Shown here in pieces: positions 1 to 30,523 of a stretch of DNA of 58,025 bases. The DNA is from a virus (lineage: Duplodnaviria; Heunggongvirae; Uroviricota; Caudoviricetes). The position numbers and the translations under genes are program-made. Location of the stretch: positions 1 through 58,025 of IMG/VR virus record IMGVR_UViG_2859821903_000003; one strand, 5' to 3'. Numbering within the stretch: the stretch's first letter is position 1; each line of letters starts with the position of its first letter. The notes beneath the pieces were generated by a model. It ran no database searches and was not told the origin of the DNA. It saw only the letters and a program-made list of their open reading frames with translations.

Positions 1-1461
1 ATGAAAAAATTACTGCGTCTTTTTTTCCCGCTCTCGCTGCGGGTACGTTTTCTGTTGGCAACCGCTGCGGTAGTACTGGTGCTTTCGCTTGCCTACGGAA
101 TGGTCGCGCTGATCGGTTATAGCGTCAGTTTCGATAAAACTACGTTTCGGCTGTTACGTGGCGAGAGCAATCTGTTCTATACCCTTGCGAAGTGGGAAAA
201 CAATAAGTTGCATGTCGAGTTACCCGAAAATATCGACAAGCAAAGCCCCACCATGACGCTAATTTATGATGAGAACGGGCAGCTTTTATGGGCGCAACGT
301 GACGTGCCCTGGCTGATGAAGATGATCCAGCCTGACTGGCTGAAATCGAATGGTTTTCATGAAATTGAAGCGGATGTTAACGATACCAGCCTCTTGCTGA
401 GTGGAGATCATTCGATACAGCAACAGTTGCAGGAAGTGCGGGAAGATGATGACGACGCGGAGATGACCCACTCGGTGGCAGTAAACGTCTACCCGGCAAC
501 ATCGCGGATGCCAAAATTAACCATTGTGGTGGTGGATACCATTCCGGTGGAGCTAAAAAGTTCCTATATGGTCTGGAGCTGGTTTATCTATGTGCTCTCA
601 GCCAATCTGCTGTTAGTGATCCCGCTGCTGTGGGTCGCCGCCTGGTGGAGTTTACGCCCCATCGAAGCCCTGGCAAAAGAAGTCCGCGAACTGGAAGAAC
701 ATAACCGCGAATTGCTCAATCCAGCCACAACGCGAGAACTGACCAGTCTGGTACGAAACCTGAACCGATTGTTAAAAAGTGAACGCGAACGTTACGACAA
801 ATACCGTACGACGCTCACCGACCTGACCCATAGTCTGAAAACGCCACTGGCGGTGCTGCAAAGTACGCTGCGTTCTCTGCGTAGTGAAAAGATGAGCGTC
901 AGTGATGCTGAGCCGGTAATGCTGGAGCAAATCAGCCGCATTTCACAGCAAATTGGCTACTACCTGCATCGTGCCAGTATGCGCGGCGGGACATTGCTCA
1001 GCCGCGAGCTGCATCCGGTCGCCCCACTGCTGGACAATCTCACCTCAGCGCTGAACAAAGTGTATCAACGCAAAGGGGTCAATATCTCTCTCGATATTTC
1101 GCCAGAGATCAGCTTTGTCGGTGAGCAGAACGATTTTGTCGAGGTGATGGGCAACGTGCTGGATAATGCCTGTAAATATTGCCTCGAGTTTGTCGAAATT
1201 TCTGCAAGGCAAACCGACGAGCATCTCTATATTGTGGTCGAGGATGATGGCCCCGGTATTCCATTAAGCAAGCGAGAGGTCATTTTCGACCGTGGTCAAC
1301 GGGTTGATACTTTACGCCCTGGGCAAGGTGTAGGGCTGGCGGTAGCCCGCGAAATCACCGAGCAATATGAGGGTAAAATCGTCGCCGGAGAGAGCATGCT
1401 GGGCGGTGCGCGGATGGAGGTGATTTTTGGTCGCCAGCATTCTGCGCCGAAAGATGAATAA
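1..1461 (+). CDS. phoQ: Sensor histidine kinase PhoQ (complete, 486 aa)
   Basis: Full-length translation matches E. coli PhoQ from memory ([19 protein letters not shown]..., HAMP, histidine kinase and ATPase motifs). Confidence 0.95.
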
Positions 1462-2195
1462 ATATGTCCTTTTATCACCATATCAAGACAAACCATTGAT
1501 TTAATTAAATAATCTGCACTGAAAAAAGTGCCAAAAATCGCAAATTGACTACACCATTAACTACACCGTTCGGTGCACCGTATGAAACAACGTGGAACAA
1601 ATAGACACAAGAAATATACAGGCGGATCATCTTTCCAGGGGAAGCGCACCAATTCATGAGGGGCGTTAATGTCTATATGGGGATCCCCACCTACCGGAAT
1701 TTTTTTCCGGTTAAACGTTAATCAGGCTGGTGGGCTTTACCTGTTCGGTAGGTGTTATGATTATCGTAATACCTTTCCCCAATGGGGTAAAAGCATCAAC
1801 CGTAACGAAAGTCGTTATGGTTGCCACTGATACCCCCAATTTGGGTATCACGAGTAAGCCCCAAAATCTGGGTGTTACTCTTACTACCCAAACTACGGGT
1901 AGTTTCCGTAGTTTCATGGTCGAGTTGCAGATCTGCAACTCCCCCATTAACCACAGGCGAATTTCCGCCTTCGGTCATTCCTTAATCATCTGCGTAATCA
2001 TAATGATTATTCAGCAAGCGCAATTTTGCGCTTTGCTTAAAGTTCAGCGAGTTACCGCGCCGACTTCCTCAAATTGAGGTTTCCGAAAATATCAGCGGGT
2101 TAGCGATTAAGCTGATCATTAATTAAACTGCGAAAATGTCGTAGTTGTGAGGGGTGTAGCCAACCCATTTTTGGGCCGTCGGGAATATCAACCAG

Positions 2196-2490: not shown

Positions 2491-4152
2491 TTACACCCCG
2501 CTAAATTCTTCCAGTTTCTGGCGGTGGCTGTCGCTTATATCAAAAGCAAAATCCTCATGCTCTGCCTGGAATGTACCAAACGCCATCAGCGCCGCCACGC
2601 TCGGGTCTATCTTGTTCGGTGATTTTTTCTTGTTCGGCTTGATATTGGCGTTCGCGTCACTCTGCATCACGACGTTACTCATCGACCAGGACAACACCGG
2701 ATCGCCACGATGCACAATCACCCTGCGGTTAACAAAAACTTCGAACGATTTCGCCGCCGGACTTAATCTGAGGTAGGTTTGCGGGAACGGCTCCACCTCA
2801 AAACCTGCCCCCTGTAATTGCGTTCTGAGATGCGTGGCGTTCCACGTATCAAAGCCCACCAGCCTGATATTAAATTTCTCCGCGTCCTGCATGATGTCAT
2901 CTCTGATCCGGTCGTAATCAATGCAGTCGCCAGGCGTTGTGCGTATCCAGCCTGCTTTAGCCCACTGACGATAGATGGCGCGGTTTTTATTGGCGGGGTT
3001 CTGTAGCTGGAACTCCGGCAGATAATGACGGGAAACCAGCATAATGGTTTTACCTACCGGAAAGGCATAGCACACGCTGGAAATATCGCTTGTGGATGAT
3101 AAATCCAGCCCCGCGTAACACTCCTAGCCGTGTAAATCTTCCTCCGTGAACGTTCCGGCACACTCAGCCCATGCGCCGTTACCCATCCACGGGGTAGTCC
3201 CCTGACACCAGATATTAAATCGCTTTGTCATCATCTCCACCCACTGCGACGGAATACCCCGCGCTTTCTGGATGGTTGAGGCCAGTTTTTCACGATCCAC
3301 GGAAACATCAATATTAGGGTTCGCCTTTATCCACATCGCCGGATCATCAACCTCGTTTTCGTCGTCCAGTTCGTAAATCAGTACAAAAATTGAATCGTTA
3401 ACCTCTTCGCCGTCCAGGATCTGGCAGCAATAATCATAGTGCTGCTTACAGGCTGAAACGACGTTGCTGCCTGATGTGGTAATGGCAAATAACAGCCCTT
3501 CGGGACGTGCGCCCATCCCCAGCTCAAGCGCGGAATAAACGCCGTTATCGGGGTGCAAGTGGTATTCGTCCACGATGGAAAGGCTGGGGTTTGTTCCCTC
3601 GATGGTTGCCGCTTTTGCTGCCAGCGGCTTTAACAGGCTGTTGCTTTTCGGGTGTATCACCTTATGCGCCTGAATATTCACCCGCCTGCGTAACGGTCGG
3701 GATAAAAGGCACATCTGACGCGCATCATCAAAGACGATCCGCGCCTGGTCACGGCTCACCGCTGCGGTGTAGATATCCTGCTGACCGTTCTCCATAATCA
3801 GAAACCAGTTAGCCAGAATCGCGGCGGTCGTTGATTTCGCATTTTTGCGCGGCACTTCGATAAAGGCGCTCGTATATTTGCGCCGTCCGGTGGCCTTAAC
3901 CTTAAAGCCGAGGATGCACGCAAAGGCGAACTGCTGCCACGGCTCCAGCTCAATGGGTCTGCCACGCATCGGCCCTTTTACGTGCGGGCACACCCTGGAA
4001 AAGGCAATAAACCGATCCACAACCTCACGATCGAACGTGTAAAGGGGGCTTTTAAGGTCTGAAAAGTACCGTTTAACGGCCTGTTTCAGCCGTTTACAGG
4101 CCGGAATTTTGCCCGTTTTTACGTCTTCTGCGTACTTATTCCAGGCGGTCAA
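2491..4152 (-). pseudogene. Terminase large subunit, interrupted by in-frame amber (TAG) at 3124-3126
   Basis: ORF 3124-4152 is the terminase ATPase-like N-terminal part and ORF 2491-3075 the nuclease-like C-terminal part; both are in the same frame, separated only by one TAG. Confidence 0.75.
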
Positions 4153-4492
4153 GCTCGTCCTCTTCTTCTGTTTCCGGTGGATTTTTACGGCGGCTTATCG
4201 GGTCAAAACCGAGCAAGGAGGCCATTTTTATCATCACTCTTTCCGCGTCGGATTTCGCGCTTAATGTGGGGTTTCTGCTCTCTCCGCCCTGACTGTTAAC
4301 AATGCTGAACCCGCGCGCCGCAAGGTCTGCGACGGCTTTCCGGTATATCGAGTAATTGACGCAATACAGTTCCAGATTGCTCCAGTCGGCGGGAGTCAGG
4401 TCACCCCGTTCCGCAAGCTGCCGCGATTTTTCCCGCCACTGCTTCACGGCGATATCATCCAGGTAGGCGGGGGCTTTCGGTGGTCTTGCCAT
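4136..4492 (-). CDS. Terminase small subunit (P27-family-like)
   Basis: 118 aa ORF overlapping the TerL start, located after the HNH gene; typical HNH-TerS-TerL arrangement. Confidence 0.65.
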   Translation of the reverse strand: MARPPKAPAYLDDIAVKQWREKSRQLAERGDLTPADWSNLELYCVNYSIYRKAVADLAARGFSIVNSQGGESRNPTLSAKSDAERVMIKMASLLGFDPISRRKNPPETEEEDELDRLE

Positions 4493-4781: not shown

Positions 4782-5222
4782 TCATTCATCAGCGTCATAC
4801 ATCCAGTTATTGCGGTTAGCGGCCCGTTCTTCCTCTTCACGAAATCCACCTGCGGCACGCTTACTTTTTGTTGCCGGATCAAGCCATTTCGTTTTCTGGT
4901 TATGGCACGCCTGACACAATGGTTGATGGTTCCATTCGGGCCAGAAGAGAACATCATCACCGCCATTAATCGGGATAATGTGATCCACCACCACGGCGGG
5001 CGTATATATCCCCTTCTCAAGGCATCGCACGCATAACGGGTTTTTACTCAGATACATGGCGCGGTATTTGTCCCACTGTCTGGAGTACCCACGCGCGCGG
5101 CGGTGTCCTCGTCTGGCATCCTCTGCACGCCATGCCGCCCGCCTGTGCTCCTCACACTTGCCGGACTTCACGCGCCTGTTACAGCCTGGTTCTGTGCATC
5201 GTCTTAATGGTTGCCACGGCAT
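4782..5222 (-). CDS. Phage-associated HNH endonuclease
   Basis: Motif DHIIPINGG...NHQPLCQACHNQKT; position next to the terminase genes as in cos-packaging phages. Confidence 0.75.
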   Translation of the reverse strand: MPWQPLRRCTEPGCNRRVKSGKCEEHRRAAWRAEDARRGHRRARGYSRQWDKYRAMYLSKNPLCVRCLEKGIYTPAVVVDHIIPINGGDDVLFWPEWNHQPLCQACHNQKTKWLDPATKSKRAAGGFREEEERAANRNNWMYDADE

Positions 5223-5518
5223 CAGTACACCCCCACATCACGGTAAGCCGTCCAGAGTACACCAATCGTCATGGGTACGCGTGTTTTTGCGTTATCCGCG
5301 ACAATCTGGCGATTTTCATACAGGTGAGCGATAAACATCATGCAGCCAATCTTTATGGCTGGCGTGAACTCCAGCCCGTCATCAAAGCGCCTGCCTATGT
5401 GTATCTGGCACGCCTCAAGCGATGCGGCAATGTATCCGCTGATTAACTGGTCTTCCTCGTCGCCATCGATGCGGCAATGGAGTTTCACTTCTTCCAGGGT
5501 GATAAGTTCTTCTGTCAT
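5222..5518 (-). CDS. Head-tail connector / DNA-packaging protein (gp6-like)
   Basis: 98 aa ORF in conserved position after the head-closure gene; translationally coupled. Confidence 0.45.
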   Translation of the reverse strand: MTEELITLEEVKLHCRIDGDEEDQLISGYIAASLEACQIHIGRRFDDGLEFTPAIKIGCMMFIAHLYENRQIVADNAKTRVPMTIGVLWTAYRDVGVY

Positions 5519-5895
5519 TTTTCCGCGCCCTCACGACAAAGAATTTCAAGGCGTGTCCTGGCGGCATCCGGCAGCGGCTGCCCGATGATATTCAGTACAC
5601 GCCCCGCCAGCGGCCCCGTATTGACCTTTATCCGGCTGGTGGCGTTGATGTCCTTCCTGTAGCGTATCCATACCCTTACCGTTCCAGTCGCCAGTTCTGC
5701 ACCCGATGAAATGGCCTCCTTGCTGCTGATCATGTTCACGCTTGCCCAGAGTGTGTGACCGTCCACCCACGTTTCGAGTATTTCGCCCGTCATGGCTCTG
5801 GTCTGTTTCAGGGTCTGAATCGTTACCCTGTCACGCAGTCGCCCTATGTTCATTCCGGTTTTTCTCCCTCGCTGATTTTTACTTCCTGTTTCCAT
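5515..5895 (-). CDS. Head closure / head-tail adaptor protein
   Basis: 126 aa ORF between portal and connector genes; family assignment by position and size. Confidence 0.45.
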   Translation of the reverse strand: METGSKNQRGRKTGMNIGRLRDRVTIQTLKQTRAMTGEILETWVDGHTLWASVNMISSKEAISSGAELATGTVRVWIRYRKDINATSRIKVNTGPLAGRVLNIIGQPLPDAARTRLEILCREGAEK

Positions 5896-7059
5896 GCCTG
5901 GCTGAACTCATCACCACCATCACGCGGGGACAGCCCTTCACGTTCGCGGGCTTCGTTCGGGCACATAACGCCGGATTTGATGCCGCGTTCATAGGTGGCA
6001 AAGCGTTCGCCAGGTGTGGCCCGTAACAGGTCCGCGCTGTCAAACTCCACCTGATACCGGATACCAGGTACAGGCGAGGCCACCAGCAGGGCGTTTTTTA
6101 TCTGCTTCTCAAAGTTCGCCAGCCACGGGCGCATCGTCATGGTGAGAAATGCGCGGCTTGCCTCGCTGAAATTGCTGTAGGTGCTGTTGCTGTATTCCTG
6201 CAAAAAAATCGGCGAGACGTTGAACATTCGGGCGATGTCTTCAATGGTGAAGCGACGGGAGGCCAGCCATTCAGCATCCTGATTACTCATGCCCAGCTGC
6301 TGATAGCTCATACCCCCTTCAAGGATGGGCGTTTTTCCGGCGTTTCTGGCCCCTTTGTAGCGTTCCAGCGCGGCTAATGCCTGTTTGCCCTTCACGCCGT
6401 CCAGCCATTCGCCTGACGTGATAACCCCTGCCGCCATCATGCCATCACGCATCACGCTCGCGCCGTGGCGTTGTTGGGCCAGCCCAAGCCCCAGCGATTC
6501 GCGGCAGATGGTTACAGGTGAGCGCCCCATAAAACCGTCATCCGTGGAGTAACGAAGGTGGAGAACCTCCCACGGTAAATAGTTGCGGGTGTTTCCGGTG
6601 TAGGCGTCAGTGATGCAGTAGCGCCAGTTATGCTCACCTGTCTGCTCAACGTTCACCGACTGCGGCGGGTAAGGATGCAAAGCGACCGGAAAACCATCAC
6701 GCCCCCACTGAATCACCGCATAAGCATTACCGTTTAACAGGCAGTGGCGGATCATCATTCGCTTAAACTGGTAGGGGGTTTGCCATGCGTTCGGGCGCTC
6801 GTTGAGGATGTGATCGACCGGATGAGAATCAAGCCACTCGCGGGCCTCCTTCCCCTTCTCATTGCGTACCAGGTACAGGTAACACGGCATGGTAGCCACC
6901 GCCTCAGAGATGACCGTCACGGCGTTCATGACGGCGGGCAGTGATTCCGCTGTCCCCGATGATACGTACTCACCCGCCCCGTGTTCGATGTGCCAGCCAG
7001 CGCCATAAACTCATCAAGCGTCATGCTGCGCTGCTCTTTTTTTCTTCTGAAAGGCCACA
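5850..7059 (-). pseudogene. HK97-family portal protein, probable frameshift near the 5' end
   Basis: ATG at 7059 is coupled to the protease stop and reads MWPFRRKKEQRSMTLDEF... for about 44 codons, then stops; the 359 aa portal-like body (6929 down to 5850) continues in another frame. Confidence 0.55.
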
Positions 7060-7061
7060 TA

Positions 7062-7634
7062 TCACACCCCCGCTAAATCCGCCCACCAGCGGCGATTATC
7101 CGCACGCGGCATTTTTTCGGGGTGCTGCTCATACAGGGAACGGCGGGCCAGCTCCACGTCGGAATCAGGGTAAGCCGGTACGGATGTAACGGTAATTTCG
7201 TACAGTTCCGCCACCAGCACGGTGCGCACGCATGGATCTGTTGTGGTATCCCATACATCCTTACGGGAACGAAAGCCAAAGCTCATGCCGGATATATCAC
7301 CTCGTTTAACCAGTTCGATAACGTCGCGCCCTGTACTGGTATCCGGTGGGGTCAGTTCAAAGCGTAACCCTGTTTCGTCCTCTTCCAGTTTCAGCGTGCC
7401 GGAACGGGTGCGCCCCAGTAACATGCTGTGGTCATGCTCATACAGGCCGCGAACGTCATTACCCGCCGCAAGCCATTCAGTAAACGCCCCCCGCTGGAAT
7501 TTTTCGTAAAACTCACCCCATAACAGTTCTGAAAGCTTATCCCAGCGAACAATGTAGCCCGTCAGCGTACCGGCTCCGCTGGTGGTGATTTCCGATGACC
7601 GGATTTCCATACTCTTCATAATTTTTTCACCCAT
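7062..7634 (-). CDS. Prohead maturation protease (HK97 family)
   Basis: 190 aa ORF between capsid and portal genes; size and position typical of S78-type prohead protease. Confidence 0.7.
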   Translation of the reverse strand: MGEKIMKSMEIRSSEITTSGAGTLTGYIVRWDKLSELLWGEFYEKFQRGAFTEWLAAGNDVRGLYEHDHSMLLGRTRSGTLKLEEDETGLRFELTPPDTSTGRDVIELVKRGDISGMSFGFRSRKDVWDTTTDPCVRTVLVAELYEITVTSVPAYPDSDVELARRSLYEQHPEKMPRADNRRWWADLAGV

Positions 7635-7672: not shown

Positions 7673-8830
7673 TTAATCGTCGTCCTGTGGCAGTTCCAGA
7701 ATCTTGATCGCGTTCGAATCCACCACGCCACCGCCTAAATATTTCTGCGCGAAAATTTTGATGAAGCCCGGCTCTGTGAGGTTGTCCGGTCTGGTGCGAA
7801 CACCTGTTTCGTGATCAACAATGTAGTAACCGCGTTTGAAGTCACCCAGGGCAATAACGTTATCCGGCATAAACTCCAGATATTCGACCGGAAGGCCCAG
7901 CAACGTATCAGGATCACCCGCCTGTAAACGGTCACGCCAGATGTAATCACCGTTCGCGTTCTTCACCTTCTGGAGTTTTGCCTCCGTCGTGGAGTTAACC
8001 ACCCAGACCGCGTTTTTGCGGTATTTTTTACGTAATGCAAATTTCAGGTCGATCAGCGGGTCCGCAGATGTCCACGCCAGAGATTCGGAAGGTTTAATTA
8101 CCTGCAACGTACCAAAATCACGCTCTTTGTCGTTCTTCTCTGCACGGGGTACGGATAAAAAGCCTTTTGCTTTTTTGTCACCGTCGCCCACAACCAGATC
8201 GCTTTCTTCGGTTTCCGTGAAGGTGTCGCCAATCTCGCCCGTCAGCCATGAAAGGATGTCCACATCGGAAAAATCCACGATTTCCTGCGTGGTGCGCGGG
8301 TACGCATAGACCGGATACAGCTTAATGCTCACCTCGTTAATCTGCGGGGTGCTGGTCTGTTCGCGTGCCTTACCCTCTTCACCGTGGTTAACGGTCGCAC
8401 CGCCAGCGGAAACAAGCTGCTTAAACTCGTTGCTGCTGATTTTCTTCACGGTACAGATGCGGCGCATGGTGGATTCATCCGTCAGCATTCGCATGATTTC
8501 GGTGTTCAGTTCGGGGATAACGGTATAACCACCATCAGCGGGAACGCCTGTACTCAATGCGCGGGTTTCACCTGTCAGAATGTAGTGACGTAGTTCGGCG
8601 GGGTCAGTGGTCTGGCTGTTTTTGCCTGGTTTACTGCGCTCTTCGTCAGCAACGGCCTCAAGGCGGGAGATGTCTTTATCGAGTGATTCAGCTTTAGCGC
8701 GTAATTCGTCAAATTTTGCGCCCTCAGCATCGTTAAGGCTGCGGTTTTCTTTTTCCGCGTTCTCCAGCATGTCGCGCATCTGATTTTTAATGGCGGTTTT
8801 CTGCTGGCGTAATTCGATTATTCTCGGCAT
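7673..8830 (-). CDS. Major capsid protein (HK97 fold family); start probably MPRIIELRQQ
   Basis: About 385 aa with N-terminal coiled-coil delta domain then capsid-like body; first gene of the head operon. Confidence 0.75.
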   Translation of the reverse strand: MPRIIELRQQKTAIKNQMRDMLENAEKENRSLNDAEGAKFDELRAKAESLDKDISRLEAVADEERSKPGKNSQTTDPAELRHYILTGETRALSTGVPADGGYTVIPELNTEIMRMLTDESTMRRICTVKKISSNEFKQLVSAGGATVNHGEEGKAREQTSTPQINEVSIKLYPVYAYPRTTQEIVDFSDVDILSWLTGEIGDTFTETEESDLVVGDGDKKAKGFLSVPRAEKNDKERDFGTLQVIKPSESLAWTSADPLIDLKFALRKKYRKNAVWVVNSTTEAKLQKVKNANGDYIWRDRLQAGDPDTLLGLPVEYLEFMPDNVIALGDFKRGYYIVDHETGVRTRPDNLTEPGFIKIFAQKYLGGGVVDSNAIKILELPQDDD

Positions 8831-9117: not shown

Positions 9118-9399
9118 TTATCTGTCCTGGTAATTTCGCCATATTTCATCACCAGCACCATCCATACCCATTTCGGCATAAGTGCGATCGACCGCCTTTT
9201 TCAGGTCTCCGTAATTATCCGGCGGCTCCGGTGGCCTCTGTGCCTTCCTGGAACATTCCAGCCGTCGCATCGTGATGTGATGCCGTTCCTTGTCTGTCTC
9301 CACCAGTTGCATGACTTCACCCCATCGCGCCGACGCTCTCCGGTAAAAGCCTTTCGCCTCCAGTTCTTCCGCTATGCGGTCATGTACCATCGTCCCCAC
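9118..9399 (-). CDS. PerC-family-like transcriptional regulator (tentative)
   Basis: 93 aa; segment AEELEAKGFYRRASARWGEVM resembles the PerC/Pch family as I recall it; not verified. Confidence 0.4.
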   Translation of the reverse strand: MGTMVHDRIAEELEAKGFYRRASARWGEVMQLVETDKERHHITMRRLECSRKAQRPPEPPDNYGDLKKAVDRTYAEMGMDGAGDEIWRNYQDR

Positions 9400-9402
9400 C
9401 CC

Positions 9403-9813
9403 TCAGAACGGAATATCATCACCGTAAGGGTCATCGCCTCCCGCTGGTGGCTGATTACCCTGTGTGCCTGTGGTCTTGCGTCGGCTCCCACCAGGACGTG
9501 CCGCACGGGCACTGATTACGCTGTCTGCAATAACCTGATAACCCTGCCGCGTTTCCCCGTTCTGTCCGGTCCACTGGCTGACCTGCATCGTGCCGGATAC
9601 GCTGGCAACGTCGCCTTTTTGATGTTTAGCCAGGAAGTCGGCCTGCTTACCAAATGCGATGACCGATAGCCATAACGTCGCCTGTCCATCCTGAGCCTGG
9701 CTGCATGGCAGCGATACCGCCATACGCGCCAGCGTCATCGGTGTACCCTTGCTGGTCTGTTTTACCTGCGGGTCGTCCACCAGCCGCCCGTAAGCTGCAA
9801 TTTGTGCTGTCAT
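9403..9813 (-). CDS. ssb: Single-stranded DNA-binding protein
   Basis: OB-fold-like N-terminus, Gly/Pro-rich linker and acidic C-terminal tail ending DDIPF. Confidence 0.8.
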   Translation of the reverse strand: MTAQIAAYGRLVDDPQVKQTSKGTPMTLARMAVSLPCSQAQDGQATLWLSVIAFGKQADFLAKHQKGDVASVSGTMQVSQWTGQNGETRQGYQVIADSVISARAARPGGSRRKTTGTQGNQPPAGGDDPYGDDIPF

Positions 9814-9822
9814 ATTGCCACC

Positions 9823-10128
9823 TCAGTGAAGCGATCCGGCGTTGTTCTTTTTCATCTCTTCCATCATTTTTTCAGTGAGCATTACGCACTGAAAACCCAT
9901 GTTTTTGATGTCCACGGGCTTCATGCCTTTATCAGTGGATATCACAGGAAGAATATCCTGATACACATCGCGGTCAGGGTAACTAAGCACACAAAGCGCC
10001 CATGATGCCACGGGTGAGGATCCTTCGTCTGTTTCAACCCACCAGCCTGGTGTAGCTGCGCTTATTTGCTGAATCGTGATCCGTCCGTTGTGCTTGTAAA
10101 GTTTTTCACCAAATTTTGGTTCGCTCAT
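9823..10128 (-). CDS. Hypothetical island protein (101 aa)
   Basis: ORF in the replication-proximal operon; no motif recognised. Confidence 0.35.
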   Translation of the reverse strand: MSEPKFGEKLYKHNGRITIQQISAATPGWWVETDEGSSPVASWALCVLSYPDRDVYQDILPVISTDKGMKPVDIKNMGFQCVMLTEKMMEEMKKNNAGSLH

Positions 10129-10406
10129 GATTCCAACTCTCCGGTTTTAACGTTGATTGTTGTTACCTGTTCCGCTTCGGCAATCTCCCGTTCTGTCAGC
10201 GTGGCAAAGTTTGCCGCCGCCGTGGTCATGAATGCGCTTATCAGGTCGGGATGTTCCTTCGCGTATCCTTCCCGCGTGTGGCGGTCTATCGTTCTGATTG
10301 CCACCTTTAAGGTGTGCTCAGTCATGTCTAACGCTTTATATTTTGGCTCTGTTCTGTCTCTGCGTTTTTGGGTCATTTCTCGCAACCTCTCACTTTTTCG
10401 CCTCAC
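10125..10406 (-). CDS. Hypothetical island protein (start uncertain, possibly the internal Met at 10325)
   Basis: ORF whose 5' portion overlaps the iteron array. Confidence 0.3.
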   Translation of the reverse strand: MRRKSERLREMTQKRRDRTEPKYKALDMTEHTLKVAIRTIDRHTREGYAKEHPDLISAFMTTAAANFATLTEREIAEAEQVTTINVKTGELES

Positions 10407-10578
10407 TTTTTCAAGCGTCTCACTTCGTCGCAGTTGGGATTTTCGGTTTTTCTATGTGTATGTTTCATAAGTATTTTTTTACCCCTCACTTTTGAGGATG
10501 TATACAGGTCGAAAAGTGAGGGGGAGCGGGCTAATTTTGGCCCTCTTTCTATCCCCTCGCTTTTGCTCCTCACTTTTA
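10379..10578. repeat. Iteron array, CTCACTTTT-type repeats (at least 6 copies, one inverted); candidate island origin of replication
   Basis: Copies at 10379, 10393, 10410, 10486, 10570, a CTCGCTTTT variant at 10553 and an inverted copy at 10511-10524, immediately 3' of the replication gene. Confidence 0.5.
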
Positions 10579-11976
10579 TAGCGGCGCTACATCATCCCCA
10601 TCGATACGAATAACCCCATCTTTTTCCAGCTTGTACAGCCAGCGCCGGAAGTTTTTCATTTCATACCCCAGCTTTTTCATGTCATCACGTAACATCTGGA
10701 TCGTGCACTTGTCGCCGTTCTGTGTGCGTGAACGGATGCACCCCCATAGCGCGGTATGGTTTTCCGTCTTGTTCCCTGCCTCCTCGATGCGCTCCAGTTC
10801 AACAGGAGGGCGCGGATCATCCACCACCACCAGCGACGTGATTAATTCACCGTCAGCGTCGGTAAAAAGCTCCACCACGCGTAAGTCATATGCGGCTTCT
10901 TTGAGTTCCTCCGCGTCCTTCATTTTGGTGCATGAGATAACCAGCGCTTCGCTTCCTGCGTCCTCCCTGCGTATCCGGTATTCAGCATCCAGCGAAGCAC
11001 GAAATGCACTGGAACCGCGCGCGCCTTTCGTCTCATCCTTGCCGGAATGGTGAACCACCAGCACCGTGGCCCCTGTGCGTCGTTTCAGTTCGTCACAACC
11101 ACGGATAAACGCCCCCATATCACGGGAATCATTTTCATCATTCCCACCAAAGCAACGCGCCAGCGTATCCAGAATAATCATGCGTACAGGTTTACCCGTT
11201 TCCCGCTCCACCTGACGGGCAGCGATAACCATTTCATCAACATCAAGCGGGGCAGCCGGAAAGATGGGGCGGTTTACCAGATACAGATTTTTCACCTGCT
11301 CATCGTGCACAACCTCCCAGGCTTTTACACGACGCGGAACACCTATACCGCCTTCACCAACCACATAGAGAACCGCACCATGTGCAACCCTGCGGCCTCC
11401 CCACTGGCGACCAGTGGCAACATGGCACGCCCACGATCCGGCAAGGAATGATTTATAGGACCCGCTAGCCCCGTATATGCTGCATAGCGATACCGCCGGA
11501 ATAATCCCCTTAACCACGTAATCCAGTTGCGTGTCGTATCCGGTAGATCCAACGCTCATCGGTAGCGTGGTTTTTCGCTGGTGGTTTTTTTCTTCCGCCG
11601 GCTCTTTCCCGCGCACCCGTTCCAGGTATTCGCGCCAGTTCTCCCGCATATGGCTGTGCATCCCTTCGGGGTAATAATTCGCATCAGTTACACCCGCCGC
11701 CGCCAGCTTGTGCGCAATGGCATTAATATTTGATGGCCTGATGTGGCCTGCCTTGTACAGCCGGACACAATAGCGCCCCTCGTCGATGATTCTCAGGTCT
11801 GCCAGTTCATCCAGTTGATCATCAGCCAGCACAACGGGAGGCACATTATCGCCAGCCAGTCGCCCGTCCTGTTCCTGCCACTGTTTCGCATGTGCCCAGG
11901 CATCACTACCCGCAAAAATAATGGCTTCGGTCATCTTGTCGTAAGGCTGTTTTTTTAAGTTCGGTGCGCTTTTCAT
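10576..11976 (-). CDS. Replication protein, RecA-like/AAA helicase family
   Basis: 466 aa; Walker A GASGSYKS, Walker B-like LVVHHSGKDE; adjacent to iterons. Confidence 0.65.
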   Translation of the reverse strand: MKSAPNLKKQPYDKMTEAIIFAGSDAWAHAKQWQEQDGRLAGDNVPPVVLADDQLDELADLRIIDEGRYCVRLYKAGHIRPSNINAIAHKLAAAGVTDANYYPEGMHSHMRENWREYLERVRGKEPAEEKNHQRKTTLPMSVGSTGYDTQLDYVVKGIIPAVSLCSIYGASGSYKSFLAGSWACHVATGRQWGGRRVAHGAVLYVVGEGGIGVPRRVKAWEVVHDEQVKNLYLVNRPIFPAAPLDVDEMVIAARQVERETGKPVRMIILDTLARCFGGNDENDSRDMGAFIRGCDELKRRTGATVLVVHHSGKDETKGARGSSAFRASLDAEYRIRREDAGSEALVISCTKMKDAEELKEAAYDLRVVELFTDADGELITSLVVVDDPRPPVELERIEEAGNKTENHTALWGCIRSRTQNGDKCTIQMLRDDMKKLGYEMKNFRRWLYKLEKDGVIRIDGDDVAPL

Positions 11977-13140: not shown

Positions 13141-13227
13141 GGCTCCTAGTTTACGTTGTTGGTTAGAAGCCCTGCGAGTGGTAATGACACTTGCGGGGCT
13201 TTGCTTTTTTAAGTGCTCTTGTGTTAA

Positions 13228-13272
13228 GGTGGCCACCTAACAATGGAAAGGCTAATTCAATAGGTGGCCACT
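13228..13272. promoter_or_regulatory. Twin palindromic operators AGGTGGCCAC (13228-13237 and 13263-13272) in a divergent control region
   Basis: Two copies of a 10-bp palindrome with 35 bp centre-to-centre spacing, between the divergent leftward operon and the RHH gene. Confidence 0.5.
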
Positions 13273-13331
13273 TGTCAACAATCAAACGCGATAAAAGCCC
13301 TAAAGGGGACGGGCAATCCCCACAATTCAGA

Positions 13332-13463
13332 ATGCGAATTTCTCCAGAGCTAAAAGAGCAATTCGACAAAGAAGCACAGAGCGACGGCATAAGCCTAGCC
13401 AACTGGCTTAAAGAGTTGGGGCGCACTGAACTAAAGCGGCGCGGCATAGAACCCAAAGGATAA
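13332..13463 (+). CDS. Small ribbon-helix-helix (Arc/CopG-like) DNA-binding protein, candidate island repressor
   Basis: 43 aa from MRISPELKEQFDKEAQSDGISLANWLKELGR; RHH-like pattern; divergent from the replication operon. Confidence 0.4.
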   Translation: MRISPELKEQFDKEAQSDGISLANWLKELGRTELKRRGIEPKG

Positions 13464-13505
13464 AAACTATCAGCGCCGTGGTGTGAGGTATTACGGCGCA
13501 TTGCT

Positions 13506-13694
13506 ATGCAGGACAACACAATGACCGATAAAGAATTGACCAAAACATTATCACCGGCACGGAAAAGACGGCGCAGAAAGATAGAGCATGAATCAGAAAG
13601 ATTCGCGCCATGTGCTTTTGCCCTTGAGCAATTCCTTAAAGAGTATAGGGAAAAGCGCTCATTGCAGGTATGGCAACGAACTGAACCAGACTGA
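13506..13694 (+). CDS. Hypothetical small basic protein
   Basis: 62 aa ORF downstream of the RHH gene on the same strand; terminator follows. Confidence 0.25.
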   Translation: MQDNTMTDKELTKTLSPARKRRRRKIEHESERFAPCAFALEQFLKEYREKRSLQVWQRTEPD

Positions 13695-13789
13695 TTGCAT
13701 TGCCCACCAGCCTGATAGCGGCTATCATCCCCGTGCTTATGTTTGGGATCACATACACATAAGGCGCAGCGGGTTATCTGTTCAGAAAG

Positions 13790-13817
13790 GCGGCTCCATT
13801 TCGGGGCCGCTTTTTTT
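13790..13817 (+). terminator. Rho-independent terminator of the rightward RHH transcript
   Basis: GCGGC stem / 11-nt loop / GCCGC followed by T7. Confidence 0.5.
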
Positions 13818-13963
13818 ATGCCTGAAAAACCCCAATTTTGTGGTTTTCCAGTCTCACCAGGGCGAACAAATCCCCGCCCACGTTCTGGCGTATATTCAAT
13901 CTTCATGGTTATAGCTCTGTGTTCAGATGATTGATGTGTGGCGGCTGCGTGCCGCCAGCGTGA

Positions 13964-14152
13964 TTAATGAACTGCCTTGCAGCTATCCTTCCAGGCCAGA
14001 ACCTCGGATAAAGACCAGCCAACGGAACGACCGCCAAGTTTACGACGTGATGGGAATTGTCCGGCCTTTTCCAGGCGGTAGCGACACGTACGGCTAAGGC
14101 CGGTTAGTTTTTCGCATTCTTTTTCACGTATAAACCGATCAGTGCTTAACAC
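13964..14152 (-). CDS. alpA: AlpA-family phage transcriptional regulator / excisionase-like protein
   Basis: 62 aa; LSRTCRYRLEKAGQFPSRRKLGGRSVGWSLSEVLAW matches the AlpA pattern; next to int. Confidence 0.75.
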   Translation of the reverse strand: MLSTDRFIREKECEKLTGLSRTCRYRLEKAGQFPSRRKLGGRSVGWSLSEVLAWKDSCKAVH

Positions 14153-14424
14153 TATTGCCCCCTTTCGTTTCTTAAAGAGTCATCAGGTGTCTTATTGTGT
14201 CGTATTGTTCCCGCTAGAGTGATGAATGGCAAATACTGAGGATGTATGATTTACAGAAAATGAAAAAGTAAGAATAAAATCTTTTAAATTCATGTTAATA
14301 CAAAGGCATAAAATATTGTTCCATGCCTTTTTTCTCGCTCTTTAAAGAGTGATTCGCTAGTGTATAAAAAACCAGTAACACATTAAAAATCAGCTACTTA
14401 TAAATCCGTACGCTTTTTCGCCTC

Positions 14425-14478
14425 TTGTTCGTAGTTGTTCCACATTGTTGCTCATTGTTGCACGTTGTATCTGTTCGC
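14425..14478 (+). promoter_or_regulatory. Array of five or more 10-bp-phased TTGTTC/TTGTTG hexamers between int and alpA
   Basis: TTGTTCGTAGTTGTTCCACATTGTTGCTCATTGTTGCACGTTGTAT in AT-rich intergenic DNA upstream of alpA. Confidence 0.45.
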
Positions 14479-14516
14479 ATATCCAGTATGCGCATACTGA
14501 AAAAACACGAAAAAAA

Positions 14517-15746
14517 TTATTTTCTTCTGGCTACTGGTAGCGTGGTTACGTTTTCATGTGTTCCCGCCAGTATCCCTAACCGCTCCGTCCACATATCCAG
14601 CGCATTGCGTTTCGCATCCAGATAACGGGAATGATTATAAACTCGCTGCATTCCTGGCATCTGGTGGCCTGTAAGCTGCTCCACGACATGCGGATCAACG
14701 CCTAAATCGTTCAGCATGGTTGTAAAGGTGCGCCGGATGTCATGCAGTGACCAGTGAGGGTGTTTAAGCCTCCTGTGCGCTAATCTGCCGTACTGCGACA
14801 CGCTGGTTTCCTGTTTCACTTCCCCCAGCAATAAGCCCGTGTGCCTGTTCTGCTCCACCAGCTGCGTGACGAACGGCATTATCGCTTCCGGTATGGGCCG
14901 GAATATGGCTACCTTCGTTTTGCTGTGCTCCTTCGGAACAGTCCAGAGCATTTCGGTAAAATCCCACTCGCCGATCTCCGATAACCTAAGTTCGACCGTC
15001 CGGCATCCGAACACAATCAGGAGGCGGATTAGCGCGATGTAGTAGGGGGAGAATATTTTTTTGTCCAGTGCCTGCAATAATTCGCCAAGTTCTTTGTTGC
15101 TTAAGACACGCTCGCTTATATCCGGTTTTTTCCCAACGTCCGCCACACTCATATCATCAAGAACGTTGCTGATTGCATAGCGCCGCTTCCGGCAGAACTT
15201 AAGCGCCTGCTTGCATGTCTGTAGCAGGAACCCGGCGGAAACAGGGGCTTGCTTTGCCACCCGATCAAAACAGGCCAGCCAGTGCCGTAGCTCGCATTTA
15301 TCCAGCGGCATAGGGCCAATGTGCTGTATTACGTGATTATTTAGCCGCTTTTTCAGTGGGTCATAATCCACACGGTTTTCCTTTGCGTACGACTCAAGCC
15401 AGTAGGTGAGCGCATCACCAACCGTTACCGGCTTTAACGCTTCCTGTACGGTGTAATTCATCTCATGACGTGGATTTTTCCCCTCAGCCAGCCATGCGCG
15501 ACACTGGGCGGCTTTTTCCCTGGCTGATTTCAGACTCAGATCAGGATAATTTCCCAGCTTAATGCGTTCCGGTGGTGCCCCCCTTCCCGTTCCGGCCCTG
15601 TAAGTGAAATACCAGGTCAATTTCCCTGATGTTAAATATTTCACGCTCAAGTTTCCGCCATCACTATAAAACGTGTTTTTCTCCGCTGGCTTACCATGAA
15701 GTTTCCTTAGCAAGGTATCGCTCAGTTTGTTCATTGCTCTGCTCAC
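14517..15746 (-). CDS. int: Tyrosine integrase, P4-type
   Basis: 409 aa; N-terminal arm-binding-like domain (KLSDTLLRKL...SDGGNLSVKY), catalytic HDIRRTF and LLGHQ...RVYNHSRY. Confidence 0.85.
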   Translation of the reverse strand: MSRAMNKLSDTLLRKLHGKPAEKNTFYSDGGNLSVKYLTSGKLTWYFTYRAGTGRGAPPERIKLGNYPDLSLKSAREKAAQCRAWLAEGKNPRHEMNYTVQEALKPVTVGDALTYWLESYAKENRVDYDPLKKRLNNHVIQHIGPMPLDKCELRHWLACFDRVAKQAPVSAGFLLQTCKQALKFCRKRRYAISNVLDDMSVADVGKKPDISERVLSNKELGELLQALDKKIFSPYYIALIRLLIVFGCRTVELRLSEIGEWDFTEMLWTVPKEHSKTKVAIFRPIPEAIMPFVTQLVEQNRHTGLLLGEVKQETSVSQYGRLAHRRLKHPHWSLHDIRRTFTTMLNDLGVDPHVVEQLTGHQMPGMQRVYNHSRYLDAKRNALDMWTERLGILAGTHENVTTLPVARRK

Positions 15747-15995
15747 GTTTTACCCCCTCTTTACGAAAAAGTGACTACACCAGTGACTACACCGATCGTT
15801 GCACAAAGGGCTACAACGTGAAACAAGCTGGAACAAGGAAAATCACAAATCTGTTGATAATCAAAAACATAATGCACAACCTGAAACATTATGAAACGGC
15901 AAAAAACACTAATTGATAAAATATGCCCATACTTCACGCATTACGTTAAGCATCCGTTATAATCGGTTGCAGATACCAGCCTGTGGATGCTTAAC

Positions 15996-17117
15996 ATGGA
16001 ATACCAACTCACTCTTAACTGGCCCGATTTTCTTGAACGTCACTGGCAGAAACGCCCGGTGGTGTTAAAACGCGGCTTTAATAATTTTATTGACCCGATC
16101 TCTCCAGACGAGTTGGCGGGTCTGGCGATGGAAAGCGAAGTTGACAGTCGACTGGTCAGTCACCAGGATGGCAAATGGCAGGTCAGCCACGGCCCGTTCG
16201 AAAGCTACGATCATCTCGGTGAAACCAACTGGTCATTACTGGTACAGGCAGTGAACCACTGGCATGAGCCGACCGCCGCGCTGATGCGACCGTTCCGTGA
16301 ACTACCGGACTGGCGTATTGATGATCTGATGATTTCTTTTTCTGTACCTGGCGGCGGCGTCGGCCCGCATCTCGATCAGTACGACGTGTTTATCATTCAG
16401 GGTACCGGACGTCGTCGCTGGCGAGTGGGCGAAAAGCTGCAAATGAAACAGCACTGCCCACATCCGGATCTGTTACAGGTCGATCCGTTCGAAGCCATCA
16501 TCGATGAAGAGCTGGAGCCTGGTGATATTCTTTATATTCCGCCAGGATTCCCGCATGAAGGCTACGCGCTGGAAAATGCGATGAACTATTCCGTGGGCTT
16601 TCGCGCGCCAAATACGCGGGAACTGATTAGTGGATTTGCCGATTATGTGCTGCAACGTGAACTGGGCGGCAACTACTACAGCGATCCTGATGTTCCACCT
16701 CGCGCTCATCCTGCGGATGTTCTGCCTCAAGAGATGGATAAACTGCGTGAGATGATGCTCGAATTGATCAACCAGCCGGAACACTTTAAGCAATGGTTTG
16801 GCGAGTTTATATCCCAGTCACGTCATGAACTGGATATCGCGCCGCCGGAACCGCCTTATCAGCCAGATGAAATCTACGATGCGCTGAAACAAGGTGATGT
16901 GCTGGTGCGCCTGGGTGGTCTGCGCGTATTGCGCATTGGCGACGACGTGTATGCCAATGGTGAGAAGATCGATTCCCCGCACCGTCCGGCACTGGATGCA
17001 CTCGCCAGCAACATTGCGCTGACTGCGGAGAATTTTGGCGATGCGCTGGAAGATCCGTCATTCCTCGCGATGCTCGAGGCGCTGGTCAATAGCGGGTATT
17101 GGTTCTTCGAAGGGTAA
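15996..17117 (+). CDS. roxA: Ribosomal protein uL16 arginine hydroxylase RoxA (YcfD)
   Basis: Translation MEYQLTLNWPDFLERHWQKRPVVLKRGF... matches E. coli YcfD from memory; start taken at the second ATG. Confidence 0.9.
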   Translation: MEYQLTLNWPDFLERHWQKRPVVLKRGFNNFIDPISPDELAGLAMESEVDSRLVSHQDGKWQVSHGPFESYDHLGETNWSLLVQAVNHWHEPTAALMRPFRELPDWRIDDLMISFSVPGGGVGPHLDQYDVFIIQGTGRRRWRVGEKLQMKQHCPHPDLLQVDPFEAIIDEELEPGDILYIPPGFPHEGYALENAMNYSVGFRAPNTRELISGFADYVLQRELGGNYYSDPDVPPRAHPADVLPQEMDKLREMMLELINQPEHFKQWFGEFISQSRHELDIAPPEPPYQPDEIYDALKQGDVLVRLGGLRVLRIGDDVYANGEKIDSPHRPALDALASNIALTAENFGDALEDPSFLAMLEALVNSGYWFFEG

Positions 17118-24452: not shown

Positions 24453-27400
24453 TCAGCTGATACTGATGCCTGCGGTGGCTTTCTTCATCACCACAACCAG
24501 CAAATCGCTGATACTTGCTGTGGGATACCAGTTATTCACCAGCCATGCTGATACCGAAAACTCCAGCGTCATGTGACCGTGACCGGCAGGCATATCAATA
24601 ACGCCACTGTAAATCAGCGTATTATCCAGCGCGGTACGGTTATAAATTTCAGCACCGTTTTTCCGCACTATCAGACGGCATGAGGAGTAAATATCAGTAT
24701 GCTCTCTCATGCTTAGCGCCGCTGAATGCCACCGCCGGAATAACAATTTGCCGGTCAAAAGGCTGATCGTCATAAATCCTGACGGTAACGGTCCCTGATG
24801 GCCACCGCTCCGGTGCCCGGGAGTCCCGCGGAAAAGCCTTACCCACTGTTTTAACGAGATCGCCTTCAATCTGGTTCGCGGACAGTTTTCCCAGAACCCG
24901 GCAGTTCTCGTTAATCGTGACGTTGTTGAGCGTCCCGGAGTTCGCATTCACGTTACCGCTGATATCAGCATTTCTTGCGGTCAGCCTGCCCTCCGGCGTC
25001 AGGGAAAACGTCGGGGGATTGCCGGACGAGGTGATACTCACCGCAAACAGCCGCTTCAGGAACACATCGTTCATGAACAACTGATTCCCCTGCGCCACAA
25101 ATAACGGCGTGGTGTTGCCGTCCTCCGGGTTAATCATCGCAATACGGTCAGCCAGCAGCAGTATGTTGCTCAGGGGCTGGCCATCAGTATCCTCAATCCC
25201 CGCTCCAATACCGGCAACATAGGGTATGCCATTTTTTGTTTTCTGTACCTTCAGCATGTAAAGTGCAGCAAGGTCATCATTTGTGTCCTTCTGCACGCGC
25301 TGTATCTGCTGTATGGTGGCGCTCTGGTCCTCCAGCGTTTTACTGACCGTCTGTGTGATTTCATTGCGGGTTTCGGTGATGGTGGTCTTCATCTCCGCCA
25401 TCTCATCCGCAAGCTGGCTGTTGTCTATCAGCTCCCACAGCCCCTGAGCCAGATGCAGTTTTCCTATTTTTTCCCGAAACAACCCCAGATACCCTTCTGC
25501 ATCATTGCTGGCCCGTCCACTGGCCTCCACAAAAGCAGATTTCCCCACCAGGTTGACGCTGCGCACGTAAAACCAGAAATCCTTCCCGGGCTTAATGTGC
25601 GGGCCGGATACACTCCACTGACTGCCGGTCCCCAGATAACGGGCAGAGGTTTCCACCTGAGATGTGTCTGCGATTTTTGCCTCCGAAAACCAGAACTCAA
25701 ACTGTACCGTCGGGTCATACACCGCAAGACGCGGTACCGCTGTTATCTGAAAATACCCCGGCGTCAGTTCAATGGTGGCGGGTTTTGCTGGCGCGTTAAT
25801 CCGGAAGGTGGTGGTGGCCGGTTCGCCCTGCTGGCCATAACTGTTAATTGCCCTGACTGTCAGGGTGTATTCCCCGAGCGGCAGACCACTGAAACGATGC
25901 TCTGTATCCGCAGTGATAGCGGTGGTCACCAGACGGCTGTCTTCTCCGCTTCCGCTGGTCAGTCGCAGACTGAAGCGCACCCCCTTCACCACCCGCGGCG
26001 TGTCCCATTTCGCCTGTGCCAGATACTGGCCGTCAGCTGCGCTCACCTCCACCGTCAGGTGCTGCACTGCCGGTGGGATGACGCTGTTCAGGGAGCCTGA
26101 CTGCGGCTCAAAGCGGGCACCGTTATCCACGATGGCTTCTTTTTCCGGTACGTGCTGCACCGCCGTGATGGCAAAGGTGCCGTCCGTGTTTTCCCGGACG
26201 GAGACACAGCGGAACAGGCGACGGCGCAGTGACGGCAGGGAGAGTCCCCACACCCCGTATGTCTCCACACCATCAGGCAGGGTACTGACCTGTATCCGGT
26301 CCGGCGCGGGGTGTGCGGTGATGTCCACACTCACCGGCTTACCGCTGCCGTTAATCAGGTTCACCGCCGATGTACCTGTCTCCGGCAGGGTAACCTCACG
26401 GTCCAGCGTCAGGGTGCGGGTGGCAGCATCAATGGACAGGACACGTCCGCCGGTCATAGTCCCGGCATAGTCGTTATCACAGATTTCAATAATGTCACCC
26501 GGTGTGTGACGCAGCCCCTGTGACCCGAGCGTGAAGTCCACCGTCTGCGTTTCCAGCAGTCCGGTCTTTATCACCCACAGACCTGCACGGTGAGCCTGAC
26601 CGCGGCAGGTACAGCCAAACGCATCCATCTTCAGCAGGTTGCGTCCGTAGCACAGTATGGCTTCCGGGTCTTCCACCAGTTCCGTGGAGGTCTGCCAGCC
26701 GTTCTGCGGGTCGGTGTAATTCACCTCCACCGCCGTGTGCCGGTCCTTCAGGGCACTGAAGCTGTAGCGGAATCCCACGCCGTTATCATCCACCACCACA
26801 TCGCTGTTGGTGTACGGCCACACCACATCCGACGGGCGGTCCTGAACGAACGTCAGCGTCTGACCGTTCCATACCGGCATACAGCGCATCGCAGAGCAGA
26901 AATCACTGAGAACGTCCCACGCCTTACGCTGTTGTGCCAGGTACGCATTAAAGGTCATCCGCGGCTCGGTCCCCCCGAAACCATCCGGGACCGTCTGGTC
27001 GCAGTACTGCCCGATGGCATACAGCGCCCACTTGTCCACATCCGCCGCCCCCAGACGTTTTCCCATGCCGTAGCGCGGGTGAGTCAGCATGTCCCACAGG
27101 CACCAGGCCGGGTTGTTGCTGTATGCCGGTTTCAGACTGCCGTCCCAGATACCACTGTACGTGCGTTTTTCCGGGTCATAGTTTGACGGCACCTGGATGA
27201 TGCGACCGCGGATATGGTAGTTCACCGTCATCTGCTGACCACCAAACTGCTCCGCATCCACCTGCATCCCCACAATGGCCGTGTTCGGGTAGCACTGTTT
27301 CACATCGATGATTTCGGTGTATGACGACCACAGCGTTCTGTTCTGCAGCTGGTCCGTGGTGCTGTCCGCCGTCTCCCTGACCATCCGGATGTTAAAGGGG

Positions 27401-27924
27401 CGGGGAGGCAGATTATCCAGAATCACCGACGCAAGGAACTGTGAGGTGGTCTTGCCGTTAATGGTGACATCCTTTTCCGTCACCCAGTTACCGTTACGCT
27501 GTAACTGAATCAGCAGACGGACAGAGGACGGATTACGGTCACCCTTTGACGTGGTCTCCACCAGTGACTGCACCCCGAAGGTCACCCGCAGGCGGTCAAT
27601 GTTCGCTGACGTAATGGTGCGTGTTACCGGTTTTGCCCTGGTCACTTCGACACCCAGTACAGTTTCAGAGCCGGAGGACTCAAAGCCTTCCGGTGGTGTC
27701 TGCTCCTGCTCCCCGGCACGCCAGACCGCGGTCACACCGTGTATCACGGGATTACCGTCCGTGTCCGTCAGCGGGGTTTTGTTCACCAGAATACTCTGCA
27801 GGCCTTTCACCGGGCCTTCTATCGGTCCCTCACCAATCGCATCAATCACGCTCATCATCTGCGTGGATTTGAGATTGTCTTTCGCCTCACGCGGTGTGTG
27901 CGCCCTGCCGCCACCTTTGCCCAT
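24453..27924 (-). pseudogene. J: Tail tip / host specificity protein J with frameshift near the 3' end
   Basis: 1076 aa ORF colinear with lambda J; the C-terminal receptor-binding segment is read in a different frame (ORF 24453-24947). Confidence 0.85.
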
Positions 27925-30194: not shown

Positions 30195-30523
30195 CAGTTC
30201 ACCACCTGCTTAAACTCCGCGCTGAACTCAACGCGCAACATCCCGACCCGCGCAGACCACCCGGCACAGGTCACCTTTATCTGCCGGTATGCATAAGGCG
30301 GTGTCCACAGAAACGCCTTCCAGCCACCGTGCTCTGCCAGGAATTCCTCCAGATGCCGGGCTTCCTCCCGGGTCACGGAAAGCGTCACCCGGTATGTTTT
30401 CAGGTCAGCACTCAGCCCTGCCGCCATACGCTGCGAATAGCCGTCACCAAAACGCACTTCACGCACCGATGGCCGCGAGTTCACCTCCATATCCGGTTTC
30501 ACTTTCCAGCGAAAGGTTTTCAT
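30194..30523 (-). CDS. M: Minor tail protein M
   Basis: 109 aa ORF between H and L, lambda M-like. Confidence 0.85.
   Translation of the reverse strand: MKTFRWKVKPDMEVNSRPSVREVRFGDGYSQRMAAGLSADLKTYRVTLSVTREEARHLEEFLAEHGGWKAFLWTPPYAYRQIKVTCAGWSARVGMLRVEFSAEFKQVVN

Follow-up and report, generated by a model that had tools for sequence, protein, structure and literature searches.

The window, a stretch of 58,025 nucleotides, carries between phoQ and roxA an island with a gene for the large subunit of terminase (TerL). The coordinates of the features discussed below are collected in Table 1. The TTG start of this gene is the one used for its orthologues in the RefSeq annotation. Translation of the minus strand from 4152 to 2491 gives, around the interruption, the peptide FTEEDLHG followed by the stop and by ECYAGLDLSS, and the plus strand reads CTA at 3124-3126, the reverse complement of TAG. 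This translation bears out the claim of an earlier note, peptide included, that the ATPase and nuclease parts of TerL share one reading frame with a single TAG between them; the note leaves out that the strand is the minus one. No frameshift is present in the gene, whose frame is collinear with, and free of gaps against, the intact orthologues of 553 aa.

Table 1. Features of the island and its borders (positions in the window)
Feature	Position	Strand	Details
phoQ	1-1461		Flanking gene
Direct repeat, copy 1	1542..1617	+	Imperfect, 76 nt; 74% identity, spacing 14226; probable att-containing end, phoQ side
TerL (large terminase) pseudogene	2491..4152	-	553 codons; TTG start 4152, TAA stop 2491-2493, one internal amber
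Untranslated remnant of TerL	2494..3123	-	RNase-H-like nuclease fold: D350 (3103-3105), D435 (2848-2850), D516 (2605-2607)
F463L	2764	-	TTC to TTA; behind the stop, only in the TAG lineage of the window and L005
Former Dcm site	3123..3127	.	Ancestral CCAGG, now CTAGG (coding strand); change at the inner, methylated cytosine
Amber codon TAG	3124..3126	-	Codon 343, from CAG (Gln); coding-strand C to T, plus-strand G3126 to A
Predicted truncated TerL product	3127..4152	-	342 aa; ATPase domain, lid and linker, without the nuclease catalytic residues
TerS	4136..4492	-	P27 family (Terminase_4), intact; overlaps the TerL start by 17 nt
HNH endonuclease	4782..5222	-	Packaging module, intact
Head-tail connector and head completion/closure protein	5222..5853	-	Phage_connect_1 (gp6-like) and Phage_HCP, intact
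Portal	5850..7060	-	1-nt gap at ~6976 (GGGGG to GGGG), frame shifted after codon 28
Prohead protease	7062-7634	-	Peptidase_S78, intact
Major capsid protein	7673-8830	-	HK97 fold, intact
Replication module	9118..11976	-	PerC-family regulator, SSB, two small ORFs, RepA-family helicase (10576-11976)
AlpA regulator and tyrosine integrase	13964..15746	-	AlpA 13964-14152, integrase 14517-15746
Direct repeat, copy 2	15768..15843	+	Imperfect, 76 nt; probable att-containing end, roxA side
roxA	15996-17114		Flanking gene

The locus was tested as a member of the HK97/P27-like class of large terminases (PF03354 and PF20441). The Pfam profile TerL_ATPase matches aa 71-242 (E = 5e-26), and the TerL_nuclease profile spans the stop, with profile positions 4-83 aligned before it and 95-284 after it. 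The N-terminal packaging ATPase domain is present with its Walker motifs; the Walker A-like segment PRKNAKST (aa 101-108, window 3829-3852) aligns with the RKNGKT Walker A region of HK97. The TerL of HK97 (6Z6D) was the sole solved relative found by sequence, matching aa 46-540 with E = 6e-42. It possesses an RNase-H-like nuclease with the catalytic residues D302, D388 and D471 (Fung et al. 2022, PMC9410871). When the residue mapping is corrected for the 10-residue tag on the crystallised chain, these three positions align to D350 (GLDLS), D435 (GFDTW) and D516 (NKIDPS) of the window protein. All three are located downstream of the stop, and D350, where the RNase-H-like fold starts, follows it by 7 residues. 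The wording of the earlier note, which spoke of an ATPase half and a nuclease half, is structurally fair, as the HK97 alignment puts the RNase-H-like fold after the stop. The catalytic acidic residues of the nuclease are encoded beyond the in-frame TAG and are not found on the same polypeptide as the ATPase, which makes the locus a TerL pseudogene and not an intact member of the class. The earliest in-frame restart codons past the stop are a GTG at 3075 and an ATG at 3042, and a fragment of 183 aa starting at this ATG is predicted by gene callers. Since both codons lie beyond D350, no functional enzyme made of two chains appears plausible from the sequence.

The remaining content of the island places it among known satellites. 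The integrase (Phage_integrase with an Arm-DNA-binding domain), the AlpA regulator (Phage_AlpA) and a replication module with a RepA-family helicase (AAA_25) and an SSB are present, the Pfam families of the replication module having been read on L005, a related assembly described below. All 8 components of the packaging module are recognized by Pfam, TerL being amber-interrupted and the portal carrying a frameshift that is judged to be an assembly error. The distance of ~14.3 kb between the 76-nt repeats falls within the range of ~10-18 kb given for capsid-forming PICIs (cf-PICIs; 10.1101/2025.02.11.637232). No tail, holin or endolysin gene was found among the 23 annotated genes of the island of FORC_042, all of which map onto the window, and the island is devoid of lysis genes and of a complete tail module. 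The lambda-like tail genes encountered from ~24.7 kb belong to a separate prophage located beyond roxA-pepT-potAB. The chromosomal flanks align with many E. coli at 96-97% identity over stretches that include prophage, an uninformative result. On its gene content and size, the island conforms to the published operational definition of a capsid-forming PICI, of the EcCIEDL933 type (10.1101/2025.02.11.637232; PMC10085698). Helper-phage induction, with transfer in small capsids that the island makes and that receive helper tails, has been demonstrated for EcCIEDL933 and a few other islands only (10.1101/2025.02.11.637232; 10.1101/2022.09.08.507074). A defence function was considered for the island ORFs of unassigned role and was discarded, as none of them gave a PADLOC match; one of these ORFs, of 247 aa, has no Pfam match.

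The comparison with TerL orthologues proposed in the earlier note identifies TAG as the derived state, the intact relatives having CAG (Gln). CAG is found at codon 343 in all three intact orthologues read at the nucleotide level, including those of SHP24 and of FORC_042, whose island is the closest syntenic one. Escherichia coli SHP24 is the closest complete genome, its TerL gene differing from that of the window at 3 of 1662 nt (99.8% identity): codon 343 has gone from CAG to TAG, TTC has become TTA (F463L), and the third difference is synonymous. Chance is not at issue here, because one base separates the stop from the codon of intact genes that are otherwise 99.8% identical. Eight other members of the protein cluster were read and all have GQECYAGLDLS, with Q at 343. 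TerL matches were obtained in 534 genomes and are full-length and annotated as one terminase gene in 530 of these, so that the possibility raised earlier, two separate genes as the normal state, does not hold; the usual arrangement is a single gene that has Gln at 343. A query of 81 bp centred on the stop did not recover the TAG version at 100% in any of the 360 complete E. coli genomes that carry this stretch. Neither the TAG nor the CAG 39-mer was found in species-representative genomes, the TAG 39-mer was not found in JGI metagenome contigs, and a DNA search of a phage database gave matches of only ~78-79% identity.

The TAG allele is nevertheless not confined to the window. Exact-sequence look-up retrieved the 342-aa fragment as called on at least 7 contigs, and the carriers include a 28.9-kb Logan assembly (L005, ERR5984630), a 6.8-kb Logan contig (L006, SRR17988779; 8 samples yield this contig) and, at NCBI, a contig of 4.27 Mb. 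The allele is rare: it occurs on ~10 contigs, whereas its intact parent of the SHP24 type occurs on 1000 or more. Its sampling in several isolates is expected of an allele that is neutral to the host and is no proof of neutrality.

The nature of the change points to its probable origin. The alignment opposes GGC-CAG-GAG in the relatives to GGC-TAG-GAG in the window, and the ancestral sequence is a CCWGG site in which the inner cytosine has been replaced by T. Eight CCWGG sites lie in the TerL gene. Its intact form can acquire a stop by 199 different single-base changes, 50 of which are G:C-to-A:T transitions, and only five, at codons 4, 136, 343, 489 and 529, fall on a 5-methylcytosine position of a Dcm site; the chance of landing on such a position is hence 2.5% for all nonsense changes (5/199) and 10% for the transitions (5/50). 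The second C of CCAGG is an amber hotspot of lacI (Coulondre et al. 1978), and deamination of 5-methylcytosine to thymine is the event behind the lacI amber hotspots, both as stated in a review (PMC12606429). Given this sequence context, the TAG very probably arose by the hotspot mechanism: the Dcm-methylated 5-methylcytosine would have undergone spontaneous deamination to thymine and escaped very-short-patch repair. As a caveat on this mechanism, a C-to-T transition is also possible without methylation; the dcm and vsr genes of the host are located beyond the window. The likeness to the lacI hotspots described by Coulondre, Miller, Farabaugh and Gilbert (1978) extends to the change itself, where the second C of CCAGG becomes T and a Gln codon CAG becomes TAG; these were recurrent spontaneous mutations in laboratory K-12, whereas the TAG of the window is a natural allele. 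TerL variants of 492 aa, starting at Met62, were also examined as possible products of a Dcm stop at codon 4. This was rejected, as L008 (GCA_012159805.1) displays a deletion, at the same site, of HNH, TerS and TerL codons 1-61.

Two haplotypes carry the TAG. The haplotype shared by the window and L005 corresponds to the SHP24 allele with the TAG, one synonymous change and F463L; the one of L006 corresponds to the SHP24 allele with the TAG and one third-position change. The two TAG-bearing islands differ by ~1.1% elsewhere. The relatives have F at position 463, and an intact protein combining Q343 with L463 was not found in a collection of ~15 billion proteins, in which the intact protein of the SHP24 type is encoded on at least 1000 contigs. 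As it is seen only behind the stop, F463L fits a relaxed constraint, on the basis of this one change only. The other packaging genes are all intact in L005 and L006 and the lesion thus appears recent. Because the SHP24-type allele, a very common one, is the source of both TAG haplotypes, one origin of the TAG on this allele is the simplest reading of the sequences. The presence of the TAG in two island backgrounds may reflect recombination after such an origin or, possibly, recurrence at the hotspot. Independent recurrence was considered and is the less favoured reading, both haplotypes coming from the common allele and no intact parent of the window haplotype having been found.

Several other explanations of the TAG had to be weighed. 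A sequencing error, mentioned in the earlier note as a way in which its observation could fail, does not account for it, since the identical TAG is present in the independent assemblies L005 and L006, where coding position 1027 is T in both. The question deserved attention given the quality of the window itself. Aligned with L005 across 14,154 bp, the window shows one substitution and seven gaps of a single base, each gap being a C or G missing from a homopolymer. None of them occurs in L005, and the two that fall within the range of L006 are absent there as well. Such a pattern is a long-read-type error profile. The portal frameshift at ~6976 is one of these seven gaps; the portal gene is intact in L005, L006, FORC_042 and SHP24, and the missing base is probably a homopolymer assembly error. 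A second lesion or wider decay of the island was accordingly rejected as its cause, the gap being seen only in the window and absent from these four relatives. Homopolymer under-calls of this kind mimic frameshifts, and indel-type "pseudogenes" elsewhere in this genome therefore need short-read checking. Nanopore data contain systematic miscalls at Dcm motifs, and the TAG is located exactly at such a motif, in a window where seven homopolymers within 14 kb are each one C or G too short; a long-read-type consensus miscall, possibly via Dcm methylation, could in principle have produced it. Such an artefact is hardly credible, however, as the window and L005 agree at the 40 other CCWGG sites (40/40), L005 and L006 show the same T without the relevant homopolymer gaps, L006 represents a different haplotype recovered in 8 samples, and C-terminal fragments of the L006-type allele have been independently deposited at NCBI as E. 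coli proteins, e.g. WP_252500583.1.

A real TAG could also be a functional one. The earlier note left the choice between a nonsense mutation and a suppressor-dependent gene; the former is upheld by the CAG of the orthologues, and the latter finds no support in a stop that is not conserved among orthologues and in a 58-kb window devoid of suppressor tRNA. Under suppressor or read-through dependence, the TAG would be decoded by a glnV (supE-type) allele, by a phage-borne suppressor tRNA or by context-dependent read-through, and the island would be conditionally mobile. A Gln-inserting suppressor would indeed restore the exact wild-type protein from a CAG-to-TAG change, the remaining packaging genes of L005 and L006 are undamaged, and the allele is present in several isolates. 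Dependence of this kind is nonetheless very unlikely: a selected recoding site would be shared, while the stop occurs in none of the 360 complete genomes with the stretch and in no relative read; the tRNA genes of the window are limited to Arg(tct), Arg(tcg) and Met(cat); the sole missense change lies past the stop and never in an intact protein, which fits an untranslated tail; and a known mutational hotspot accounts for the stop without calling for a function. Equally improbable is a truncated or split gene kept for its function, the 342-aa ATPase fragment acting alone or with a C-terminal piece, e.g. as a dominant-negative product or a two-chain terminase. The position of the stop near a domain boundary, which could allow the N-terminal part to fold into a whole ATPase domain, and the occurrence of the allele on two island backgrounds speak in its favour. 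Against it, no start codon exists between the stop and D350, so that products of the restarts at GTG 3075 and ATG 3042 omit the first catalytic Asp; 530 of the 534 genomes have a single gene; the ~10 contigs of the allele, compared to at least 1000 for its parent, give no sign of spread or selection; and other decay variants, such as the L008 deletion, fit neutral erosion. More generally, an amber allele representing a conditionally silent or neofunctional state, and not mere decay, is given very little credence. Such a state might ground the island in ordinary hosts, wild-type TerL being regained with a Gln-inserting suppressor; it might free a 342-aa ATPase domain that interferes with helper or rival terminases; or, in a related version, the Dcm site of codon 343 might act as a recurrent natural off-switch of cf-PICI mobility, with two independent hits.

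The preferred and highly probable explanation is a recent, derived nonsense allele of TerL in a cf-PICI of the EcCIEDL933 type, generated by deamination at a Dcm site and accompanied by the loss of packaging. In a suppressor-free host, translation would end after residue 342 and release an ATPase-plus-linker fragment without the RNase-H-like fold. Because this product is without the whole nuclease fold (D350, D435 and D516), the terminase would be unable to cut the cos DNA of the island or to complete packaging. When the packaging-module genes of EcCIEDL933 were mutated one by one, transfer was abolished, except for the gene 1792 mutant in which it was only severely reduced; replication was unaffected in these mutants and the presence of a wild-type helper phage did not rescue them (10.1101/2022.09.08.507074). 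By analogy with these mutants, we infer that packaging and transfer are lost in the island of the window, which would still excise and replicate upon helper induction with no transfer in its own capsids. Low-level natural read-through of UAG often inserts Gln. Natural read-through that restores wild-type TerL could consequently leave a slight activity. The satellite is otherwise intact, and its TerL is a pseudogene at an early stage and an ordinary recent one, both the process and the satellite type being already known. The finding bears mainly on annotation: the locus should carry the label of a TerL pseudogene, inside a cf-PICI of the EcCIEDL933 type, and this copy of the island is predicted not to spread in capsids of its own. 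The locus also provides a natural example of a textbook process, in which deamination of a Dcm-methylated C converts CAG to an amber codon and inactivates a mobile element by one base.

Among known systems, the closest counterpart is the prototype cf-PICI EcCIEDL933 of E. coli O157:H7 (Alqurainy et al., 10.1101/2022.09.08.507074), which has the same gene set in the same order (int, alpA, replication, capsid, protease, portal, two connectors, HNH, TerS, TerL), is likewise without tail and lysis genes, and belongs to the same size class (published 15.4 kb vs ~14.3 kb in the window). The two differ by the amber codon at position 343 of the window TerL and by the accessory region comprised between alpA and the replication module. 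O157:H7 genomes carry a syntenic island of ~15.4 kb at the phoQ-roxA site, with a TerL of ~95.7% DNA identity; from its size and content, we infer that this island is EcCIEDL933 itself. The HK97 terminase (gp2, 6Z6D) resembles the window TerL by its combination of an ATPase with an RNase-H-like nuclease, by the conserved motifs GLDLS, FD(T/R)W and (K/R)ID and by its HNH-dependent cos packaging system; it differs in being a distant homologue, intact, and encoded by a phage and not by a satellite. Decayed cf-PICIs of other E. coli, such as L008 and NZ_OZ510750.1, the latter with a partial TerL, share with the island of the window the loss of packaging, the family and the chromosomal site. Their decay consists of multi-gene deletions, whereas in the window island a single base has changed and the rest is intact.

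The portal gene of the window (5850-7060, minus strand) lacks one G in the GGGGG run at 6976, which shifts the frame past codon 28. Since the gene is unbroken in the Logan assembly ERR5984630 and in the SRR17988779 contig, both of which carry the same TerL amber codon as the window, as well as in the E. coli genomes FORC_042 and SHP24, where TerL is intact, this break is probably an assembly error and not a second pseudogene. Besides the portal gap, six single-base gaps are found in the window relative to ERR5984630, each of them within a C/G homopolymer run (listed in the table), and homopolymers appear to be under-called in the window assembly at a rate of roughly 1 per 2 kb.

Features of the lambda-like prophage and single-base gaps of the window relative to ERR5984630
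Feature	Position	Location or run	Effect
Tail tip protein J	24694-27924	Lambda-like prophage	
Tape measure protein	30520-32685	Lambda-like prophage	
tRNA array Arg(tct), Arg(tcg), Met(cat)	37641-37890	Lambda-like prophage	
Adenine-methyltransferase-like gene	37931-38989	Lambda-like prophage	
Single-base gap	12735	C8	Breaks small ORF intact in ERR5984630
Single-base gap	12593	C3	Breaks small ORF intact in ERR5984630
Single-base gap	10552	C4	
Single-base gap	7657	C3	
Single-base gap	1776	C4	
Single-base gap	1637	G4	

Four substitutions private to the lineage of the window and ERR5984630 (2281, 2764, 4060 and 4267) are clustered within 2 kb around TerL and TerS; at each of these positions the alternative base is common to SHP24, FORC_042 and the SRR17988779 contig. 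The cluster could reflect drift after inactivation or could be a small recombination patch. Elsewhere, the island is close to FORC_042. Direct comparison of the TerL genes of the window and FORC_042 shows that eleven of their differences are packed into a block of about 290 bp (3010-3298), while the two islands are otherwise approximately 99.2% identical. This block looks like a short recombination patch inside TerL.

Packaging loss has been reached by a different route in GCA_012159805.1 (AARUKU010000029.1), where a copy of the same island occupies the phoQ site. In this locus (1182-2979 in locus coordinates) a deletion has removed HNH, TerS and TerL codons 1-61, and the leftover TerL ORF of 492 aa adjoins the head-tail connector gene.

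Between alpA and the Icd-like and replication genes, the island has an accessory slot whose content varies. In the window it holds an ORF of 247 aa (13163-13906, minus strand) which is without match in both Pfam and PADLOC and shares only some 37% identity with the FORC_042 gene in the same position.

A lambda-like prophage (about 20800-58025) follows potB. Of the 1163 positions in its profile, the J ORF matches no more than 1-1074, and a 164-aa ORF (24453-24947) overlaps it; for these reasons the J ORF may be another case of a homopolymer frameshift. Two IS3-family insertion sequences are also present in this prophage. The element at 48571-49784 has a complete ORF pair (108 aa and 296 aa); the second ORF of the element at 33915-34960 is only 240 aa long and is therefore truncated or frameshifted.
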